Source: Tricharina praecox
Lineage: Eukaryota
Length of the DNA: 20,000 bases
Assembly: GCF_024521635.1 (NCBI RefSeq)
Contig: NW_026250457.1
Location: 59,097 to 79,096, forward strand
Reading direction: 5' to 3'
Both the position numbers and the translations under genes were made by a program. The stretch's first letter is position 1, and every line of letters begins with the position of its first letter. Under the pieces are notes generated by a model, which worked only from the letters and a program-made list of their open reading frames with translations, did no database searches and was not told the origin of the DNA. Of the stretch, positions 1 to 17,726 are shown in pieces.

Positions 1-2
1 GG

Positions 3-545
3 CGAGTAGACGACTTCGAAGAATAACTTTCCAAGTCCTGTCGTATCGCCAACCGTCTGGCCACACTAGAAGCCCAACCCCAGGGCCACGCCGAGCGCGT
101 CCCGGAGCCAGCCATGTTCGATGGCACTCGATAGAAGCTCGAAGGGTTCTTTGCCCAGCTTTGACTCAAACTGTACTGCAACCATACCCGTTTCCCGTCC
201 CCAGCACTCAGAATGGCCTACACCTTCAACCGTCTCGAAGGCCGTGCCCAAGCCCAGATACTGCCGTACATCCAGAACAACGTGATCAGCTTGACCGACA
301 CCGATGCCATGGTCACCATCCTCGAAAACGCCTTCAGCGATCCCGACTCAGCGGCCACCGCACGCGCCGAACTCCACCGTCTCAAGCAAGGGAACAAGGA
401 CTTTACATCTTACTTTGCGCAGATTCAAAGGCTCGTGTCCAAGCTGAACTGGGACGAGCATGCCAAACTCGATGCACTACGCAAAGGAGTCTCCATCGAG
501 CTCCACCGACAACTGGTGGGCCGCACTCAGGGACTCACCTACAAT
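3..545 (+). pseudogene. gag: gag fragment of element A (Retrotrans_gag-like capsid region)
   Basis: Frame +3 reads ...PEPAMFDGTR*KLEGFFAQL*LKL...RFPSPALRMAYTFNRLEGRA...LENAFSDPD...ARAELHRLKQGNKDFTSYFAQIQRLVSKLNWDE...LRKGVSIEL, a typical fungal gypsy Gag. Stops at 24-26, 132-134 and 162-164. Ends abruptly near 545. Confidence 0.9.
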
Positions 546-3500
546 AGAAAAGGAGAACCTCACCATCTTTGCCACGACCCTGACGCAGATCAATGAAGTT
601 CTATCTGAAGAATAACACAGCTCAACCGCCCACATTTCCCCCGGATACCACAGATTTCTCCACGTCTTCTCTGAAAGGTTGGCGCAGAACCTACCACCCC
701 ATCGGCAATACGGCCACAAGATCCCACTGAAGAAAGGATTTGTGCCCCCTTACGGGCCCCTCTATTCGCTCTCAAAAACCGAGCTGGTCGCACTCAAGGA
801 ATGGCTTGACGACAATCTGAGTAAGGGATTCATCCTTGCGTCCTCATCACCAGCGGCATCACCGATCCTGTTTGTCAAAAAATCGGACGGCTCCTTGTGA
901 CTGTGTGTGGACTATAGAGACCTAAACGAAGGAACCATCAAGCACCGCTACCCACTTCCCCTGCCCCAGGAAACCTTGATGCGACTGTCCGGTGCAAAGT
1001 ATTTTACAACATTGGATATCCGCGGTGCTTACAACCTGGTACAAATGGCAGAAGGGGAGTAACGGAAAACGGCTTTCCGTACCCGCTACGGACTTTTCGA
1101 ATCATTGGTAAAGGCTTGCGGGCTAACCAACGCGCCAGCCGACTTTCAAGCCCTGATTAACGACGTTTTACGACCGTTTCTGGACGACTTCTGTACCGCC
1201 TTCCTAGATGACATCTTTATCTACAGCGCGTCACTGAAAGAACACTGAAAACAGGTCACCAAGGTGCTACGCGCCCTTTCATCGGCCGGACTGCACTTGA
1301 AACTGGAGAAATGCCACTTCCACCAGACAGAGGTCAAATACCTGGGCCTGATCATAACCACGGAGGGTATTAAGATAGATCCTGCCAAAGTCTCTTGCGT
1401 ACTCGAATGGGAAAAACCGACCACAGTAACGAATGTGCAGTGTTCCCTGGGCTTCGCGAACTTCTACCAGCGCTTTATCCAGGACTACTCCAAGGTGGTA
1501 TCTCCCCTGACGGCAATGACAAAAAAGGAAAATGGGAAGTACGTCCCCTTCAAATGGGGTATTGACCAACAGCAAGCCTTTGACACTCTCAAGACTGGCT
1601 TTACTACCGCCCCGATACTCCGACATTCCGACTACGACCGAGAAATAGTGGTGGAAACTGATGCCTCGGATTACGTACCGGCCGGTATCCTCTCCCAGTA
1701 CGACGCCGACGGAATCTTGCATCTGGTTGCCTTCTATTCAAAGAAACACTTCCCGGCGGAATGCAATTACGAAATCTACAACAAAGAATTGTTGGCAATT
1801 GTTCGAGCCTTTCAAGAATGGAGACCACACCTTGAAGGAGCCGCGCACCCGGCCCCAGTGCTGAGCGACCACAAGAACTTGGAATACTTCATGTCAGCCA
1901 AGTTGCTCAACCGCCGGCAAGCCCGATGGTCGGAATTCCTGTCCCGTTTCGACTTCAAAATCGTCTATAGACCTGGTAAAGCAGGAGGGAAACTGGATGC
2001 ATTGACAAGGAGGTCAGGAGACCTCCCTAAGGAGGGGGATGAAAGACTGCTGGCGAACCAACAAGCAATCCTCAAGCCCCAAAACCTGCTGGAAGAATTG
2101 AGATTGTCAGCGACCAATCCGTTGGAAGTACCCCGTCCCACTCTCTACCCTGATAACCGAAGCATATCAGGCAGATTCAGCGCCGAACAAGATCCTCCAA
2201 CTGCTCAGAAACGGAATACGCCAATCGAAGGACATCTCGCTCGTCGACTGCAGCGAAGTCAACGGACAATTACATTACCGAGATTGCTTCTACGTTCCTG
2301 AACACGACTCACTCAAACTTCGCCTGATCCAGGACCACCACGGCCCACCGGCTATGGGCCATCACGGAAGAGCTAAAACCTTGGGACTCCTGGCCGGGAA
2401 ATACTACTAGCCCCAGATGCGGAAGGACGTTGACCGATTCGTGGAAACTGCCACATTTGCAGACGAACGAAAGCAAGAACACACGCCCCCTACGGTGTGC
2501 TCAGCCCACTCCCAGTACCCGAGAAACCCTGGCAACATATCTCCGTCGAGTTCGTAACCGGACTCCCTCCCTCAAACGGATTCGATGCCATTTGCGTATT
2601 TGTGGACCGCCTCACCAAGCAACGACACCTGCTCCCTTGCAACACGACCATCACCTCTGAAGGATTCGCAGAACTATTCTGCGATCTGATCTTCAGATAC
2701 CACGGACTACCCGACACTATCGTATCGGACCGGGGCCTACAGTTTGCATCACGATTTTGAAAACATCTATGCTCTTGGCTCAAGATCGACGCACGGCTCT
2801 CCACGGCGTTCCACCCGCAGACGGACAGTCAAACAGAGAGAATGAATGCAGTAATGGAAAACACCTCCGAGTATACGTAAGCTACCTGCAGAATGACTGG
2901 GTCGACTGCCTATTCTTGGTAGAGTTTGCTGGCAACAACCAGGCATCTGACACCACCACCCTGTCCCCGTTCTTTGCTAACCTAGGCTACCACCCCCGTT
3001 GCGACTTCGAGCTTGACATCCGAACCGACAAGAAAGAAGAGCGAGAGGCACAGACAGCGGCAGAGCGACTCCAGCAGATCCATGACGTTGCCCGCAGTGA
3101 GATGCGCTACGTCCAAGCACGGCAGCAGGACAACACGGACCAGCACCGAACCCGCGCACCGGCCTTCCAGCCTGGAGATATGGTATGGGTGGACGGCCCA
3201 AACTGGCGAACGGAGCAACCAAGCCGAAAACTGGAAAACAAGCACCTCGGACGCTATCGGATTACCCGAGCCATCGGAAACCACGCATACAAACTGGACA
3301 TTCCGAACACCATCCAGAAGCACCGCACCTTCCCAGTATCCCTCCGCCACGCATCCGCTGACGACACCCTCCCCGGCCAGATCCTGCCGCCACCGTTACC
3401 AATAATTGTGAACGACCAAGAAGAATGGGAGGTGGAGGAAGTGCTCTACAGCAGAACGCTGAGGGGAAGACTCCAGTACCTAGTCAAGTGGAGGGGTTTC

Positions 3501-3551
3501 GCAGCACCGATGTGGGAACCTGAGGACAACCTTGTGGACGTACAGGCAGTG

Positions 3552-4241
3552 TGTGAGACTGGGACGGGTTTGTGTCGTCGGAGTCTATAGTAAAATCGAG
3601 GATAGAATAAAAGTCAGGGATTTCGATAATTCACAACGGAATAATCTTAAGGGTGTTTTGTTCGATGGTTTGTTCGGTGCGGTGATTGTAGTTTGTTCAG
3701 TTGCCAGCTCGGTTCGACTTATAGTCGTCCCGATCCTCAGCACGTGATTCCTCTAGAGTGCGGCCTAACCTAGCTCCGTTGCTTCCTTTGCATCGGAGTT
3801 CCGCGGCCTAGCCTTGAGTCGTCGTCAGCTCTCTTCGGATAGTCTTCTCGACTAGGCAGGTGGTAAACACCACGCGCCCAAGATAGATCGGAGTTTCCGA
3901 GCAATTATCTCCCTCATGCGCCGGCAGAGTTCTTCGCTCGAAGTTGTCTGCCCCCATCGGTCGATGTTCGATTCTCTCGTCATAACAGTTTTTTCCTGGA
4001 TCGGAGTTCCTACTGCGGGGCCCTATGATAGGAGATCTCAAAGTCCTCTGGACTGTTATCCCGATCTCCCGCATCTCCGATCACTGTCTAGACTCTGGAA
4101 TCCGTTTGCTCCCTCCTTCCTATCTTGTCTTTGATCGCTTCTAACTATCCTTTCGGCTCGCAACTCTATTCTAATCACCCGAACTATCTAATCACATCTG
4201 TTGCGACCGTCGTGTCCTCCGATACCTATCGGGGTGTCACA
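3552..4241. mobile_element. Solo LTR (690 bp) related to element B, with 5-bp TSD CAGTG
   Basis: Termini TGTGAGAC...GTGTCACA (7/8 inverted match). Flanked by direct repeat CAGTG (3547-3551 and 4242-4246). Removing it restores the chromodomain frame VDVQAV|EDFHQRYP. Its first ~110 bp align with 6494-6600. Confidence 0.93.
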
Positions 4242-6493: not shown

Positions 6494-7060
6494 TGTGAGA
6501 CTGGGCAGGTTTGGAACGTCGGAGTCTTGATACATATTGAGTATATCATTAAAGTCAGGGATTTCGATAATTCACAGCGGAATGATCTTGGGGGGTATCA
6601 AGGGTAGTGTTCGGTGTTGTGGTTGAGCTGGTGTTGAGATTTCTGTGACGATAGTTGAGTGACTATACAATCTCCCCATACACCAAGCACGTGATCGGAA
6701 AAACTTTGCCGTGGGGAACTCAGCTGCAAACGCCATTTGAGTCATGCTGTGGCGTAAGCGCTACGAAATGACTTCTCGGTGTTTCCCCAGGCGGAGGGCG
6801 CTGAGGGTGACGTACGAGGCTTAGGTCCACACCGAACCTGTGGCCCGGAATCTGGACTGTGGGCTGTGTACAGCAACTTCGGAGAAGGGTTGTGCACTCC
6901 AACAATAGTGGACAGTCGAAACACACGGTATGTAGAACAAACGCAACCGTTGAACCCTTCGGCGTTGCGAGCGATACAAGTGGTTTGTACCCTCTCTCGA
7001 GACTTGGGTAGCTTCCTATGTGTCTCTCGACGGAATCGAAGACCCGATGTGGGTCTCACT
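6494..7060 (-). repeat. 5' LTR of element B (outer boundary uncertain)
   Basis: Begins TGTGAGACTGGG and shares AAAGTCAGGGATTTCGATAATTCACA.CGGAAT.ATCTT and AGCACGTGAT with the solo LTR at 3552. Lies 50 bp upstream of the gag ATG on the - strand. Best inverted terminus is GTCTCAC at 7053-7059. Confidence 0.7.
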
Positions 7061-9231: not shown

Positions 9232-9815
9232 TGCGCGAGGCGGTAGTTGATTGGAAGAAGAAGACTCGGCAGAATTGACGCGGAAGAGGATAATTAACGG
9301 AGCACAGGGACGCAGGATACATCACAGCAGTGTGACATTTATGGACTGCTATACTGAACATTGAAGCGCGTGAACTTCATTCACTCGCCACGGCGGATCC
9401 GCCGGCCAAAAAGCGCCTACCGTAGGTTAATGTGAGGAGGATAGCGGCAGTAATGGTGGAGAATTGGCTAAGATTCCTCGGAAGAGTCCACGTTAATCCG
9501 CGGGTGAATAAACCTTCTGCACCAAGTTCGCCAGTTTGTAAACGTGCTTTCGACGTTGTGTAAGTAGTCAGCTCGGGAAATATCTCTCTTCATCTGAGGA
9601 ATATACCTTTCCGTATGAACAAATACTGGATTTACATAGCATCCCCTCTCTCGTAAACGTAAATGATGTTGCGGAGCCGCCAAAAGCGCCTGCAGTTAGG
9701 TCATTTCCTCAGAACCCTAACGAAATACTCGATACTGCACCGAGTGATGGTGGCGGCCATGATTTCGCCGACGGTTTTTGGCTAGTTCTTTGGATATTCC
9801 AACCCCACGAACCCT

Positions 9816-9823
9816 TATAAATA
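9816..9823 (+). promoter_or_regulatory. TATA box, copy 1
   Basis: TATAAATA followed by a CT-rich tract typical of fungal transcription-start regions. Conserved in copy 2. Confidence 0.7.
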
Positions 9824-10037
9824 CCTCCGTCTTCCCCCACTCCTCTTCCCTTTCTTTCTTCGTGAATTCTCAAGACTTGCTCCTGATCCCAACGTTTACG
9901 TTCTGCTCAACCCTCTCTTGCACTTCACACTTTTGTTGCATCGCAACCACCCTTTTCTGCTCTTGCTCTCGCTCTTGCTCTGCTCTTGCTCCCTTTTCTT
10001 TCTACTCCCTCTTCCTCCTCCCTCTTCTTCCTCCCTT

Positions 10038-10730
10038 TACGACTACGGTCGTATATTTTTCGAAAGGTCGTCTAAGGTACATATCTCACGCTACTTTACT
10101 ACCCCACGGGGTTCTCCCATACCTGCAGAAAACGACTGACGAAACTACTACTAGGACTTCCTAGAGATCCTACGGGACTGTTAGATTACGACTACAGTCG
10201 GAAATCATTGAAGAGGTTGTCTACGGTACATATCTCTCTATACGTCACTACAGCATGGGGTTCTCCCTTGTTTGTGGAAACTGACTGACGAAACCACTAC
10301 TAGGACTTCCTACAGATCCTGCGGGACTGTTAGATTACGATTACGGTGGGTAATCTTTGCAGAGGTTGTCTACGGTACATACCTCCCAACACTTTACAAC
10401 ACCCGGGTGTTCTCTTATATCTACGGAATGTGACTGACTAAATCACAATCAGGACTTCCAGAGACGTACTACGGTAGTGTCCGATTTTACGACTACGGTC
10501 GGTAATTTCTTTTTCGGTCGTCTAAGGTGAATATCCCTAAAGTTATTCCATGGTTGCAAAAACCGACTGACCAAACCACCATCAAGACTTCAAAGTAGAC
10601 TTACTACGGTAGTGTCAGATAAGACTACGGTCGATATCTTTTTCTGAGATAGTTTACGGTACATATCGCCTTATACACTCTTTCCGTAGTGCGTGAAATA
10701 ACTGACTGTGCGCCATCAAGACACCTAGAT
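10038..10730 (+). other. Tandem array of five ~149-bp exon+intron modules with UNCG-type hairpins (putative spliced non-coding leader or ncRNA), copy 1
   Basis: Predicted introns 10077-10154, 10226-10303, 10375-10452, 10527-10586 and 10659-10720 (GTACAT/GTGAAT...ACTGAC...YAG; the last two end in AAG). Internal exons are 71-74 nt, ATG-free, and do not join into an open frame. Confidence 0.75.
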
Positions 10731-10785
10731 TTATTTTTACGGATTACTTCACAAGACCGAGTTTGTGCAAGTAAAGTTGTCAGAT

Positions 10786-11929
10786 ATGAACAACGTTCCA
10801 ATCAAGATTGTGGCGAAGGTGTGCGGCGGTGGTGTCGACGGCGGGTAACGGCCCCAACAGGATAGCCAACAAGTCGGTTTTCGAAGACTTGGACAACTCC
10901 GACTGTGAGATGAGAGACGGCGACGACGATGGCGAAAATTCCGACTCCGGGGATGGAGCTTCTTTCGTTGCTCCTCCTCTTGACTGTGACGATGAAGACA
11001 GTGACTCTGACTTCTACGACGAAGACAAGGACGACGACAAGAAGGCCGATCACAAGAAGGCCGATGACAAGAAAGGAGACGACCCTAAAGGCGGCGACGA
11101 TGGCGGCAAATCCTCCTCCGGCGATGGAGCTCATGCGATTCCTCCTCCTCCTGCGATTCCTCCTCCTAGCTGTGACGACGAAGACAGTGACGCCGAGTTC
11201 TACATGGAAGACGAAGACGTCGACAAGAAGGACGGAGAGGCAGGCGAACCTGCAGCGATTCGTGTTCTGCTGGAATGGCGGGAGGGTGGGAACGATGATG
11301 ACGATGATGACGATGACGACGATGAGAAAGACTCTCATGATGATGACCAGAGTGGGCTAAGTGTGAGTCCACTGGATGACGACGAACTAGAGTCCCTCGT
11401 GGCTTGTTTTGAGAAGCTTTACCTATCTCGCAAGAGAAGTGTGTCGGCTGCGGCTGTCGTTGGTCAACAGAGCAGTGCACTTCTTTGCCCTCGGGCCACC
11501 GGACCTGCCAAAGACACGGACGCAGACGGAATGGAGTCACTTGTGGCTCTCTTTGCGAACCTTTCGGTGTCTGATGAGAGAACCGACAAGGACGGGATGG
11601 AGTCACTTGTGACTCGCTTCAAGAAGCTGTCAGTGTCTGGCAAGAGAGCTCAGGATGCCGTGTTGGCTCCGGCTCCTCCCAAGGACACGGACGGGGTGGA
11701 GTCACTTGTGGGTCTGTTCGCGCACTGGTCGGTGTCTGACGGGACAACCGACAAGGACGGGATGGAGTCACTTGTGGCTCGCTTCAAGAAGCTGTCCGTG
11801 TCTCGCAAGAGACGGCAGGATAGTGTGTCGGCTCCGAGTCGTCGTGACGAAGTGGACTACGTTGGGCAGACGGTGAGGCAAGTGTCTTTGGTACTCACAT
11901 TTGATTGCCAGCGACACCATACATCTTAA
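10786..11929 (+). CDS. Orphan acidic, low-complexity protein with tandem NES-like repeats; frameshifted near 10845 (possible pseudogene, or starts at ATG 10910, 339 aa)
   Basis: Long open frame 10808-11929, D/E-rich, with repeats DGMESLVxxFxxLSVS. The ATG at 10786 matches the paralog's ATG at 15431 but stops at 10846-10848 because of a 1-nt indel. Confidence 0.55.
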
Positions 11930-11967
11930 TCCATCATGATTGGCGAACGGCGAGGATTTGTTGTCGC

Positions 11968-12600
11968 CAGGGCCTCTCTGCCTGACCACTGCGTTCGCTC
12001 CCAGGGCGCTGTACTCGATTCCCTCCCAGGTCTCTCTTCCTCTATACTGCATTCACTCCCAGGCCTCTCTACTGGATTCGCTCCAAGACCTCTCTACCGG
12101 ATTCGCTGCCAGGGACCTCTACTCGATTCGCTCCCAGGGCTCTCTTCCTCTATACTGCATTTACTCCTAGACCTCTCTACTGGATTCGCTCCAAGGCCTA
12201 TCTAATGGATTCGCTCCAAGGCCTCTCTGCAGGATTCCCTCCGAGGCCTCTCAACTGGATTCACTCCCATGCCTCTCTACTGGATTCCCTCCCAAAGGCC
12301 ACTCTATCTCCCCACTGGATTCGCTCCAACGCCTCTTTACTGGATTCGCTGCAAGGCCTCTGTTTGATTCGCTGCCATCAACTCTCTACTGGATTCGTTC
12401 CCATTCCTCTCTACTGGATTCACTCTCATGCCTCTCTACCGGATTCGCTCCCAATGCCTCTCTACTGCATTTGCTCCCAGGGCCTCTACTGCATTCGCTC
12501 CAAGGGCCGCTACTGCATTCGCTACCATGGCCTCTCTGTTGGACTGGCTGCCATGGCTCTGTACGGGATTCGCGGCCATTCCCTCTCTACTGGACTCACG
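11968..12600. repeat. Degenerate 25-bp minisatellite (~AGGCCTCTCTACTGGATTCGCTCCC), roughly 25 units
   Basis: Recurrent CTCTCTACTGGATTCGCT at a ~25-bp period. Confidence 0.9.
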
Positions 12601-13714
12601 ACGATTTTCCCACGCAAAATGGCAACCACTTTCGCGGCGAGAGAGAGACAAGGCGGCATAGCAATTCTCGTCAACAACACAGACATCAGACCAACAACAG
12701 CCTACAACACGCCCGCTAAATTCATGTCCGCCGCGGATGTCGCAGCTCCACGTTTTCAGCAGCAACATTTCAGCAGTTTGAAGGATCCGTGACGCACGAC
12801 AACAGTAAAGTCAGTTCTAAACAAAAGTAGGTTGGACACAAATTACTACCACCAACGGCGACGCAGTCACGGTTCACAGAGGAGAAGCGAGTGGACTACC
12901 GCGACTGGATTCATTCGGTATCCTCACATGAAAACACCACCGGGGACCCAATTAAAACCGCCTTTGGAACCATCAGTACGATGCCGAAACGAGATTCGGA
13001 GCCGGACTCCGACGCACCCCGCCCCTCCTACTGACTGAGTGACCAGTCGTACCACTGCGCCGCAGGAAGTGACCACGGCAGACAACGATTCCACCGACTG
13101 TACTGGATGGTGCTGTAGTAGAAGGATGGGTTCTGAGAAAGAGGAGGGTTGGCATGCAAGTGGAAAAGATTGTACAGTAACATCCGAGATCAATGCAGTG
13201 TTTGTTGTGTTAGTGAGAATTCAATTCAATTGATGTTTGACGAGGATTGGTACTGCAGAATGTAGTCGCCAAAGCAGTACCGTAACCGTACAGCCAGCAG
13301 TGGTGGTGGTGGTGGTGATGGTGATCTCGAGCCCGTAATACTACTTGCCGGTTTCGGGTTCAGCATGCCATTCTATCCTTGGGCCAGCCGACGTCGGCAA
13401 ACTTCTATGGCTGGGGAGTCTGGCCCAGGATGAGATATGCCGGAAAAATCGATCCATGGTCCGGCCAGTTGTGACATTCGACCCACCTATACAGGGGCCG
13501 GTCCATGTATACACGGGCCGGTCCATCTATTGATGCGCGGGCCCATCTGAAGAACAATATATCTGCCCAATGGCATAGAACATATATAGTACCCAGCCTG
13601 CTGGTGATCAGGAATTTCCCACACCAAATGAAAAACACAATCGTGGCAAGAGAGAGAGAAGAAGGTACGGTTCTTTGGTTACTTAATGCCATTTTCAGCG
13701 AGTCTGTACATGTC

Positions 13715-14105
13715 AATTTATCATGGTTAGCGAACGGCGAGGGTTCTTTGTTGCCAGGTCCTCATGACTGGTGGTATTCGCTGCCATGGCATCTCTGCCT
13801 CTCTACGGCATTCGCTCTCAGTGCTTTATCACTGCATTCGCTCCCAGAGCTCACCACTGCATTTACTCCCAGAGATGCATCACTAGTTCGCTCTCAGGGC
13901 TCTATACTAGACTTGCTACCAGGGCTCTATACTGGAATCGCTGTTAGGGCTTCATCACTGCATTTTCTCCCTGAACTCAGCCCTGCATTCGCTCCCAGGG
14001 CTCTGTACTGGAGTCGCTGCCATGACTGTGTACTAGATTCGCTGTCTGCCAGAGAGACTGTGCTGCATTTGCTATCGTGGCCTCAGTACGGGATTCGCTG
14101 TTGTG
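13715..14105. repeat. Second, more degenerate block of the 25-bp minisatellite with the same 5' flank
   Basis: ATCATGGTTAGCGAACGGCGAGG matches ATCATGATTGGCGAACGGCGAGG at ~11932. Followed by repeated CTGCATTCGCTCCCAGGGCTCT-like units. Confidence 0.8.
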
Positions 14106-14524
14106 GGTTCGATGATGGTGGTTACTTGACGGATGTCATTTGTGTTTTTAGTTGCCACGAAAAAAAAACTGATGTGTCGCGAAAAAAAACGTTTTTTTGG
14201 ACAAGGACTTAATCCAGACTTTTCTGTCGCCGCGACGAGATGCTAGTGATTTACGACAGGAACAAGCCTGGTGCGAGACTATTTTCATCTATCTAGAGGA
14301 ATATATCTTTCCGTGTGGGCAAATATCTGGAAGTACATCATGTAGCATACCCTCTCCCGTAAACGTACGTGATGTTGCGGAGCCGCCAAAAGCGCCTGTA
14401 GTTACGTCATTTCTTTGCAACCCTAACTCCTCAGCGGGATACTGCCACCGAGTGATGGTGGCGGCCGAAAGTTCGCCGACGGTTTTTGGCTAGTTTGTTT
14501 GGATATTCCAAACCTACCAAACAG

Positions 14525-14532
14525 TATAAATA
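14525..14532 (+). promoter_or_regulatory. TATA box, copy 2
   Basis: TATAAATA at the position homologous to 9816, followed by a CT-rich tract. Confidence 0.7.
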
Positions 14533-14802
14533 GCTCCGTCTTCCTCCACCCCTCTTCCCTTTCTTCCTTCGTGAATTCTCAAGACCTCCTGATCTCAACG
14601 TTTACGTTCTGCTCAACCCTCTCTTGCACTTCACACCTTTGTTGCATCGCAACCCCCCTTTCTGCTCTTGCTCTTACTCTACTCTTGCTCCCTTTTCTTC
14701 CTCCTGCTCCCTCTTCCTCTTCCCTTTTCCTCCTGCCTTCAAGTTTTCTTGTGCACAGCACAAGTCACGAAGAGCTTGCGACAGCAAGTCTCATTTCGAC
14801 TT

Positions 14803-15375
14803 CGGACTACGGTCCGTTGCGCTTTCTGACCACGGTTAGTTTTTTTTCTCGAAAGGTCGTCTAAGGTACATGTCTCCCTCCCCCATGCTTGCGGAAAACG
14901 ACTGACGAAACACTACTAGGACTTCCTATACAGATCCTACGGGACTGAGATTACGACTACGGTCGAGAATCTTTGAAAAGGTTGTCTACGGTACATATCT
15001 ACCTCGATTCTACTACACCCGGTGGGTCTCCCATATTTGCGGAACGTGACTGACCAAGCCAATCAGGACTTCCCGGAGACGTACTACGGTAGTGTCCGAT
15101 TTTACGACTACGGTCGGTAATTTCTTTTACGGTCGTCTAAGGTGAATATCTATATAGACTCTGCTACAACTGGGAGTTCTTCCATGATTGCCAAAGCGTA
15201 TTTACCAAACCACCATCAGGACTTCCTAGTAGACCTACTACGGTAGTGTCAGATAAGACTACGGTCGATATCTTTTTCTGAGGTAGTTTACGGTACATAT
15301 CCCCACATACACTCTACCACGCCTGGAGGTTCTTCCACAGTGCGGTACTGACCGTACCACCATCAGAACACCTAG
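14803..15375 (+). other. Tandem array of four exon+intron modules with UNCG-type hairpins, copy 2
   Basis: Predicted introns 14866-14919, 14991-15066, 15142-15219 (weak branch site) and 15293-15366, all GT...YAG. Internal exons are 71, 75 and 73 nt. Confidence 0.75.
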
Positions 15376-15430
15376 ATGTTTTTACGGATTACTTCACAAG
15401 ACCGAGTTTGTGATTGTAAAGTTTTCAGAG

Positions 15431-15940
15431 ATGGACAACGTTTCCAGAAAGATTTTGGGGAAGGTGCGCAGCGGCGGTGGCGGCGGTGGCAATGGCTCCG
15501 ACAAGATGGCCTACAAGTCGAAGATCGAAGACTTCGACAGCGAGATGGAAGACGGCGGTGACGGCGATAACGACAACTCCGACTCCGGGAATGGAGCTCC
15601 TTTTGTTGCTCCAGGTGAACGTGCAGCGCTTTGCGCTCTGCGGGACTGGCGGGAGGGCGGGGAGGGGGGGGGGGGTGGTGACGACTCCGACGACTCCGAC
15701 GACGCCGACGATGAGGACGGCTCTGACGATGAGGACGACGCCAACGATGAGGACGGCTCCGACGATGATGATGACCAAGGTGGAGTATGTGAGAGTCCAC
15801 CTGACGCGGACGAACTAGACTCCCTCGTGGCTCTTTTTGAGACGCTTTACGTGTCTCGCAAGACGACTCAGAGAATTGTGTCCGCTGCGGCTGTGGTCGA
15901 CCAGCAGAGCAGTGGACCTGCCAAAGAGGCCAGGATGTAA
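15431..15940 (+). CDS. Orphan acidic protein (169 aa), shorter paralog of the 10786-11929 ORF, with one NES-like motif
   Basis: MDNVSRKILGKVRSGGGG...DSDDADDEDGSDD...DELDSLVALFETLYVSRK...AAAVVDQQSSGPAKEARM*. Colinear with the copy 1 protein. Confidence 0.55.
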   Translation: MDNVSRKILGKVRSGGGGGGNGSDKMAYKSKIEDFDSEMEDGGDGDNDNSDSGNGAPFVAPGERAALCALRDWREGGEGGGGGDDSDDSDDADDEDGSDDEDDANDEDGSDDDDDQGGVCESPPDADELDSLVALFETLYVSRKTTQRIVSAAAVVDQQSSGPAKEARM

Positions 15941-16158
15941 TGTTGGTCCTGGGTCTCAGGGGCGAAGTGGATTATGAGGAGCTGGGCTAGGGCCCACCCC
16001 GGCCCAGAGGCCGGGAGTGGTGCTGGTAGCGGCGGACGAAGAGGATGGTTATACAACCTCCTCAGGTCGCCCGACAGCAGTCCGGTTCTGGCGAACTTCG
16101 TCCGGTGGTGGTCGCCACCGGCGACCGGGTGATGTCACGCCGTACAGCTTAGACGAAG

Positions 16159-16622
16159 TTGCCTGCGACGGACTTGATCGAGCACGAGATACTGATATTT
16201 CAACGATGCAAGCTAGTACGAGCCAAAGACCCCTTATACAACAAAGTCGAATGGCAGAGACGGAACCTCCCAAAGATGCTGGACGGGTGTATCATGACCT
16301 GGGATCAGCCACCTGGGAGCGCTCTATATACACGTTCGTCTTGTCCAAGGCAGAATACTCTTACGTAGGAGATACTCAGATTCTTCAGCTTCTGAGACGA
16401 GCACGGTCCGCGCCGCGTCATCAGGTGGGCCTTGGGCTCGTGAGTCTTCGAGAGCCTTCCAGACGTCTAATGTTGACACACGGTACGGCGGTGGCATCAG
16501 GTGCTAGCAGTACTGAAGTTGCTGTCAATGTGCAGGGTATGGCAGCGATGGGAGAAAGAGCGATTCAAGATGCGATCATGACAATTCCAAGGGCGTTGAC
16601 CAATGAAAGGAATGAGGAATGA
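16159..16622 (+). pseudogene. Possible decayed Harbinger accessory ORF (Myb/SANT-like partner), convergent with the transposase
   Basis: Position is tail-to-tail with the transposase relic. Fragments EILIFQRCKLVRAKDPLYNKVEW and AAMGERAIQDAIMTIPRALTNERNEE* are only loosely suggestive. Confidence 0.25.
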
Positions 16623-17100: not shown

Positions 17101-17640
17101 GCGTTGGGCGTCCGAAATGCTACTATAATTGTCGCAGAAATGCTGCCAGACCACAGAAGTGCTAGCAGAGAAAGCATTAGCACGTGATGATGTACTAGAG
17201 GCTGTAGAATGTATCAAAATCTGGTAGAGGGATGGGATGATTGTGGCGACTCAGGCGGATGTGAAGGAAACCGGGGACATGTTGGCCGCGCGATACAGGA
17301 GGATCTGGTGTAGATTACATGATTGTAAAGATCACAATATCCAACGTGTATACTTTCGTAGCCCGACTCATCCCGACCGACCAGACCATACCCAAAGTTG
17401 GTCGGGACTGGTCTATGTAGAACACTGGTCAGAAGCATCAGCAGCATCAGCACGCATCATGGCCTTCAACCCCCGGAGACCGTTCCCCTGTCACTCTCCG
17501 AATTTCGGACGGCTAACTAGCCATCATATTGTTGTCAAACTTTACTCGCCCGGAGATCTCGGGACGAGTTAAGGTTTGGCGGTGGAAGAGTCTCGACGAC
17601 CATGATGGACCATCGACGACTATATGGTTACGCGGCGGCG

Positions 17641-17726
17641 AACTCTGACGAGCGGGCCCGGCAAATTCTGATGAGCGGTCCCGGTGAACTCTGATGAGTG
17701 GGTCCGGCAAACTCTGATGAGCGGCC
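17641..17726. repeat. 23-bp tandem repeat x3.7 (AACTCTGATGAGCGGGCCCGGCA)
   Basis: Units start at 17641, 17664, 17687 and 17710. Confidence 0.9.

Follow-up and report, generated by a model that had tools for sequence, protein, structure and literature searches.

The DNA that we analysed, a window of 20,000 nt from a contig of Tricharina praecox, looks fungal in its content: it holds two paralogous genes for acidic proteins without a Pfam family, hereafter copy 1 and copy 2, together with a gypsy remnant and the beginning of an alpha/beta-hydrolase open reading frame (ORF). The remnant is a degenerate Ty3/gypsy-type retroelement at 1-3600, whose RT-RNase H, integrase SH3 and chromodomain segments are spread across several frames; a direct repeat of 92 nt, at 3562-3653 and 6503-6594 (78%), may be LTR-related. 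Both gene copies have in common a promoter with a TATAAATA box, a CT-rich tract, a repeat array and a start codon (Table 1), and in the promoter/leader of copy 1 the stretch 9880-9955 is 96% identical to copy 2. The promoters also keep a telomere-like CCCTAA motif about 100 nt upstream of the TATA box, at 9715-9720 and 14421-14426.

Other tandem repeats lie downstream of the first gene. Arrays of a 25-bp unit (consensus CCTCTCTACTGGATTCGCTCCCAGG) occupy 11982-12594, with about 21 copies, and 13799-14056, with about 10; they come after the coding region of copy 1 and after a partial third copy of its end (13691-13763, 77% similar to 11904-11976), and across the first of them two frames of the + strand stay open (11986-12792 and 12171-12719). 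At 17636-17724 there is a 23-bp tandem repeat of 3.9 copies that includes CTGATGAG; it gave no Rfam match at the gathering score.

Table 1. Promoter, leader and coding features of the two gene copies, in positions of the window; exons and introns are proposed ones.
Feature	Position	Strand	Remarks
TATAAATA box (TATA), copy 1	9816..9823	+	Motif aligns with copy 2
CT-rich tract and probable first leader part, copy 1	9826..10036	+	96% identity with copy 2 over 9880-9955
End of proposed leader exon 1, copy 1	10037..10076	+	6-bp TACG-capped hairpin, loop at 10044
Proposed intron 1	10077..10154	+	78 nt; GTACAT, ACTGAC at 10135, acceptor TAG
Proposed leader exon 2	10155..10225	+	71 nt
Proposed intron 2	10226..10303	+	78 nt; GTACAT, ACTGACTGAC, acceptor TAG; ATG at 10255 inside
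Proposed leader exon 3	10304..10374	+	71 nt
Proposed intron 3	10375..10452	+	78 nt; GTACAT, ACTGAC at 10433, acceptor CAG; ATG at 10428 inside
Proposed leader exon 4	10453..10526	+	74 nt; 97% identity with copy-2 counterpart
Proposed intron 4	10527..10586	+	60 nt; GTGAAT, ACTGAC at 10566, acceptor AAG (next YAG ends at 10598); ATG at 10550
Proposed leader exon 5	10587..10658	+	72 nt
Proposed intron 5	10659..10720	+	62 nt; GTACAT, ACTGAC at 10701, acceptor AAG (next YAG ends at 10728)
Last leader exon, copy 1	10721..10785	+	Reaches start codon
Copy 1 coding region	10786..11929	+	Acidic orphan protein; 1-nt frameshift relative to copy 2 and P0002
TATAAATA box (TATA), copy 2	14525..14532	+	Motif match
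Proposed leader exon 1, copy 2	14559..14865	+	Start is a guess; holds about 100 nt without copy 1 counterpart, and a degenerate unit whose 5-bp hairpin is capped by TACG (loop at 14808)
Proposed intron 1'	14866..14919	+	54 nt
Proposed leader exon 2'	14920..14990	+	71 nt
Proposed intron 2'	14991..15066	+	76 nt
Proposed leader exon 3'	15067..15141	+	75 nt
Proposed intron 3'	15142..15219	+	78 nt; GTGAAT donor, degenerate branch element ATTTAC, acceptor CAG
Proposed leader exon 4'	15220..15292	+	73 nt
Proposed intron 4'	15293..15366	+	74 nt
Last leader exon, copy 2	15367..15430	+	Out-of-frame upstream ATG at 15376
Copy 2 open reading frame	15431..15940	+	169 aa

Tandem Repeats Finder reported the array of copy 1 at 10037-10506 (period 149, 3.1 copies, 77% matches, score 466) and that of copy 2 at 14951-15268 (period 151, 2.1 copies, 74% matches, score 331). 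A repeat search found five 149-nt copies in register and confined the units of the window to the two leaders, and alignment by hand lengthened the arrays to five units before the ATG at 10786 and four before the ATG at 15431. An initial annotation of this DNA had described a tandem period of about 149 bp with five and four units; these three approaches reproduce that description, including all of its unit boundaries and coordinates. In each of the nine units a block (71-75 nt) precedes a spacer (54-78 nt). Taken in order, the spacers measure 78, 78, 78, 60 and 62 nt in copy 1 and 54, 76, 78 and 74 nt in copy 2, and the blocks between them 71, 71, 74 and 72 nt and 71, 75 and 73 nt, respectively. 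Units inside one array share 62-81% mutual identity.

Fungal introns can be short, about 45-100 nt, and in those of filamentous ascomycetes an RCTRAC branch element is expected about 10-25 nt ahead of the acceptor. Measured against U2-type introns of this kind, all nine spacers have a fitting length. The initial annotation had given every unit the form GT(ACAT/GAAT)...ACTGAC...YAG, and its donor part stands, with GT in all nine spacers (GTACAT in seven, GTGAAT in two). The branch element, written as RCTRAC, is found in eight, where the branch A lies 13-16 nt from the G of the acceptor, and fails at 15142-15219, which reads ATTTAC; the acceptor is AG throughout, as YAG in seven spacers and as AAG in two, both of them in copy 1 (10584-10586 and 10718-10720). 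None of the nine donors fits GURWGY, the ascomycete donor consensus as summarised in PMC8469720: GTACAT departs from this consensus at +4 and +5 and GTGAAT at +5, and the G at +5 is missing from all nine. A Pfam search of 69 further ORFs of the window returned no family, one sub-threshold match excepted, so that there were no homology-defined introns from which the organism's own donor usage could be learned. The spacers are rich in A and C, not in U. Together with the non-consensus donors, the two AAG acceptors and the one degenerate branch element, this composition speaks against splicing of the array.

The strand of these signals points the other way. On the + strand the two leaders together contain RCTRAC nine times, on the - strand a single time, and introns on the minus strand were ruled out by this count. 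A loose intron pattern, defined as RCTRAC with YAG 8-25 nt further on and a GTR donor 45-100 nt upstream, was found seven times on the sense strand of the leaders (1.8 kb) as against five times elsewhere (both strands, about 18 kb). Since the units share one ancestor, their intron-like signals count as roughly one independent event and not as nine, and we estimate a probability of a few percent that one ancestral 149-nt unit bore such a pattern, correctly oriented, by chance. The main rival explanation starts from such a coincidence: the array would be unspliced, its blocks would be repeated cis-regulatory modules, and the intron-like signals would have been carried along by duplication. We regard it as possible, though clearly short of an even chance. 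The departure of every donor from the consensus is in its favour, whereas the restriction of the signals to the sense strand is not what it would lead one to expect.

The same two explanations can be set against the conservation of the units. Four block pairs and four spacer pairs were compared between the copies, and the blocks proved 93% identical (19 mismatches in 278, 9 gapped nt) and the spacers 83% (42 mismatches in 245, 70 gapped nt), a difference which supports a stronger constraint on the blocks than on the spacers. The first 200 nt or so of the coding start reach 80% ungapped identity between the copies, less than the blocks do. All the large indels that separate the copies sit between the donor and the branch element, which bears out the earlier claim that they fall inside the introns and spare the splice signals. 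When the nine units are compared pairwise, mean column identity is highest in the branch hexamer (0.93) and the donor hexamer (0.87), stands at 0.59 in the blocks and is lowest, at 0.41, in the stretch from donor to branch element; the columns next to the branch hexamer reach 0.25-0.44, which leaves it as a conserved island. This pattern matches what selection on splicing signals would produce, and it seems to us more telling than the pattern counts as an argument for an origin of the signals other than chance. On the other hand, conservation reaches into the spacer by about 10 nt at its 5' side and about 22 nt at its 3' side, so the signals may simply be the edges of conserved blocks and could be kept for another reason, as an unspliced regulatory repeat would have it. 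What such a repeat leaves unaccounted for is a branch hexamer that forms an island properly spaced from the AG in eight of the nine units, and signals that the indels have spared.

The blocks do not encode protein. When they are joined, each frame holds 3-8 stops in copy 1 and 4-9 in copy 2, and with stops in every frame and a period that is not a multiple of 3 a coding repeat was ruled out. The claims that the joined exons of copy 1 give no open frame, and that the exons are conserved for a non-coding reason, agree with these counts and with the excess of conservation in the blocks. Upstream of the start codon of copy 1 there are three ATGs (10255, 10428 and 10550), and all of them lie within spacers, as the initial annotation had stated; in copy 2, an ATG at 15376 falls inside the last leader block. 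Compared with dinucleotide shuffles, the blocks hold 0 ATGs against 3.1 expected in copy 1 (P 0.023) and 1 against 2.0 in copy 2 (P 0.37), so the depletion is weak; the spacers, which are shorter in total than the blocks, hold three in each copy against 5.5 and 4.6 expected. It had also been proposed that intron retention would expose upstream ATGs and switch translation off. Such a switch would depend on the three spacer ATGs of copy 1; the ATG in a leader block of copy 2 and the weak shuffle statistics lessen its weight.

In copy 1, the frame opened by the ATG stops at 10846-10848, and homologous reading resumes in the next frame after a frameshift near 10840-10845, which reflects a misassembled run of G or, alternatively, a pseudogene. 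Among 1.84 billion proteins, a search with the copy 1 frame (E up to 0.001) yielded only two representatives, P0001 and P0002, whose records both name Tricharina praecox; for the copy 2 protein there was no match among proteins of near length. The paralogue P0002 starts with the same MDNV-type N-terminus as both copies, which supports the ATGs at 10786 and 15431 as starts. Copy 2 matches residues 1-159 of P0002 and then, in another frame, residues 256-311, so that it lacks the middle of this paralogue and changes frame between 15913 and 15990; the gap between the two matches, within 15913-16160, holds no convincing intron signals, and copy 2 may have been cut short or rearranged.

P0001, a public gene model of 448 aa, agrees letter for letter with the window at 9453-12167. 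It begins upstream of the TATA box, at 9453, takes coding exons from parts of three leader blocks and leaves out 11363-11434, which aligns as coding with copy 2; by our reading, it shares the donor at 10226 and the acceptor at 10452 with the proposed introns and otherwise has different sites. That this model does not treat the region as a leader counts against a spliced leader. P0001 is probably a mis-annotation, in our view an ab initio artefact that the frameshift of copy 1 provoked. Its leader-derived part (residues 37-82) found no match among shorter proteins. Pattern scans for relatives of the leader gave a single match in metagenomes, L001, which carries none of the other unit motifs and was set aside as a chance match, and zero matches in prokaryote contigs. 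Contigs from four sequencing runs, which hold no RNA, match 11013-11812 in the coding region of copy 1 when compared with 9700-16000; in the same runs, low-complexity 31-mers match 15647-15681, the leaders are uncovered and no joints appear, which makes these data uninformative on expression and splicing.

The array could also be a decaying relic, a minisatellite in front of a young, fast-evolving and partly broken gene pair, in which recent duplication or patchy gene conversion, and not function, gives the appearance of constraint. The frameshift in copy 1, the missing middle and the frame change of copy 2, a protein family of two representatives from one species and a repeat-rich locus would all suit a relic, and so would the erosion of signals seen in the AAG acceptors and the degenerate branch element. 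We nevertheless consider it very unlikely. Blocks and spacers alternate every 70 nt or so, and the spacers exceed the blocks by a factor of two to three in substitutions and of eight in gapped nt, a fine alternation that gene conversion would not yield, and the units are old, as their divergence within an array indicates, yet have kept their donor and branch hexamers.

The blocks also carry motifs of their own. YTACGG-type motifs number 12 in copy 1 and 11 in copy 2 and lie mostly within blocks, each block module having three CTACGG-type motifs and two short TACG-capped hairpins. TACG occurs 84 times in the window; 14 of these sites are flanked by at least three complementary pairs, and all 14 are in leader blocks. 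In their consensus fold, the blocks form a closing stem plus two small hairpins capped by TACG, with 91.5% of cells paired as against 19-44% when the partners are slid and with three pairs changed on both sides; the fold was derived from these very blocks, which are related, and the compensatory changes trace to one or two events. The local hairpins are a lead only. Single blocks and spacers have folding energies of z -2.9 to +0.8, with one of 11 below -2 (blocks alone, -0.08 to -2.9), and a global RNA structure was ruled out, the joined internal blocks giving z -0.28 and +0.11 and the unspliced span +1.9 and +0.6, in neither case better than shuffled sequence.

These motifs admit an interpretation in which the leader, not the protein, would be the selected product, serving as a multivalent platform of four to five modules of about 72 nt for an RNA-binding factor. 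Each module would offer two short UACG-capped hairpins and its CUACGG motifs, duplication of the cassette would set the number of modules in evolution, skipping between the equivalent weak splice sites might also set it in the cell, and the downstream reading frame would evolve at the pace of an intron. It is an unlikely interpretation, and we mention it as a speculation.

A multi-intron, non-coding anatomy might also belong to a host of small RNAs, with snoRNA-type or other RNAs processed from the spacers or the blocks. Fungal snoRNAs often sit in the introns or exons of clusters, as outlined in PMC3596301, and CUGA is present in every branch element of the array. Multi-intron snoRNA host genes resemble it in that non-coding exons alternate with short introns; here, in contrast, it is the exons and not the introns that are conserved, and a coding region follows. 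Rfam searches yielded nothing, either over 9500-16000 with E up to 1 or over the window as a whole at the gathering score, inspection of the units by eye, as distinct from a pattern search, showed no UGAUGA (C box), spacers of 54-78 nt are short for a snoRNA, and the folding energies are mostly ordinary. Such a host has, in our judgement, only the slimmest chance of being the right answer.

Tandem repeats that raise transcription from promoters are known in fungi, and those of fungal CYP51 promoters are tandem promoter or enhancer repeats. To our knowledge, the CYP51 repeats and the monomers of mouse L1 (L1Md) have promoter or enhancer activity and lack splice-like signals. The L1Md promoter is built of tandem monomers according to the summary in PMC6454616. 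Such precedents lend weight to the unspliced regulatory repeat, as does the abundance of YTACGG-type motifs in the blocks: the units could be promoter-proximal or enhancer monomers that act as DNA through the CTACGG-type motif, of which each unit has about three, or they could work as parts of a long leader that stays unspliced. The array is like these repeats in having units of 100-200 bp just upstream of a coding region, in a number that varies between copies. It differs from them in its intron anatomy and in lying downstream of a conserved TATA box; in both copies the array is placed between the conserved TATA box with its CT tract and the ATG, and in copy 1 it ends only 65 nt before the start codon, a position that argues for a spliced leader and against the unspliced repeat.

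Seen as a spliced leader, the array has known counterparts for several of its parts. Fungal 5' UTR introns are alike in their sense-strand GT...RCTRAC...AG, their length of 54-78 nt here and their place between promoter and start codon; the array differs in that five or four of them stand in a row, derived from one cassette, with donors that lack the G at +5. Its leader is also far longer than usual. Pyronema confluens, which we take to be a relative of the source fungus, serves here for comparison. The median 5' UTR of that species is 156 nt, as summarised in PMC3778014, and fungal introner-like elements are described in outline in PMC4457414 as multiplying families of similar introns. The proposed introns of the array are alike in that they, too, are similar in sequence and multiply, but introner-like elements spread as introns alone to unrelated genes, whereas the copies in the array are local and tandem and include the exon.

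In the model for intron gain in potato RdRp, the duplicated segment itself reportedly turns into an intron and leaves the mRNA unchanged. Intron gain by tandem genomic duplication is known, for example, from this case (PMC4974935, as summarised there), and the array is alike in that new introns would come from tandem duplication. Here, however, a duplicate does not supply one splice site to an otherwise unchanged mRNA: each unit has its own donor, branch element and acceptor and a block of 71-75 nt, so that a whole exon with an existing intron would have been copied repeatedly, each time adding an intron and a non-coding exon. The literature that we searched, mostly at the level of abstracts, describes no tandemly amplified exon-intron cassette in a leader. 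Introns of the 5' UTR are already known, as are introner-like elements and the gain of introns through tandem duplication; what is plausibly new here is the local amplification, several times over, of a whole exon-intron cassette whose exons are non-coding and yet the most conserved part of the gene.

Taking together the tandem array and its phase, the signals in the spacers, the differential conservation and the non-coding nature of the blocks, all of which can be read directly from the DNA, we favour a spliced multi-intron leader built by cassette duplication and give it somewhat better than an even chance. The initial annotation had attributed the array to tandem duplication of a unit made of a block and a spacer with intron signals, and this attribution is supported. 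Transcription through the array, removal of the spacers and a regulatory use are what we infer beyond it. Transcription of both paralogues would probably start from the conserved TATA/CT-rich promoter, some 0.95 kb ahead of the ATG, giving a primary leader of about 0.9 kb with five (copy 1) or four (copy 2) short U2-type introns, which tandem duplication of one ancestral cassette of non-coding exon and intron would have produced. Splicing would leave a leader of about 0.58 kb, AUG-free in copy 1 and nearly so in copy 2, in the form of a concatemer of conserved modules of about 72 nt. The weak donors may make splicing inefficient or regulated and lead to intron retention, and the equivalence of the splice sites may allow exon skipping.

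If the array is not spliced, it is a diverged upstream tandem repeat in a repeat-rich region of orphan genes, and of modest interest. If it is spliced, it would be a clear case of introns and non-coding exons that multiply through local duplication of a cassette. The nine related introns, with their varied divergence and their distribution over two paralogues, would then form a small natural series, in which one could ask which positions of an intron are under constraint and how splicing copes with weak donors. The array would also present a gene whose 5' leader is better conserved than its coding sequence, which would point to a function at the level of RNA or DNA.
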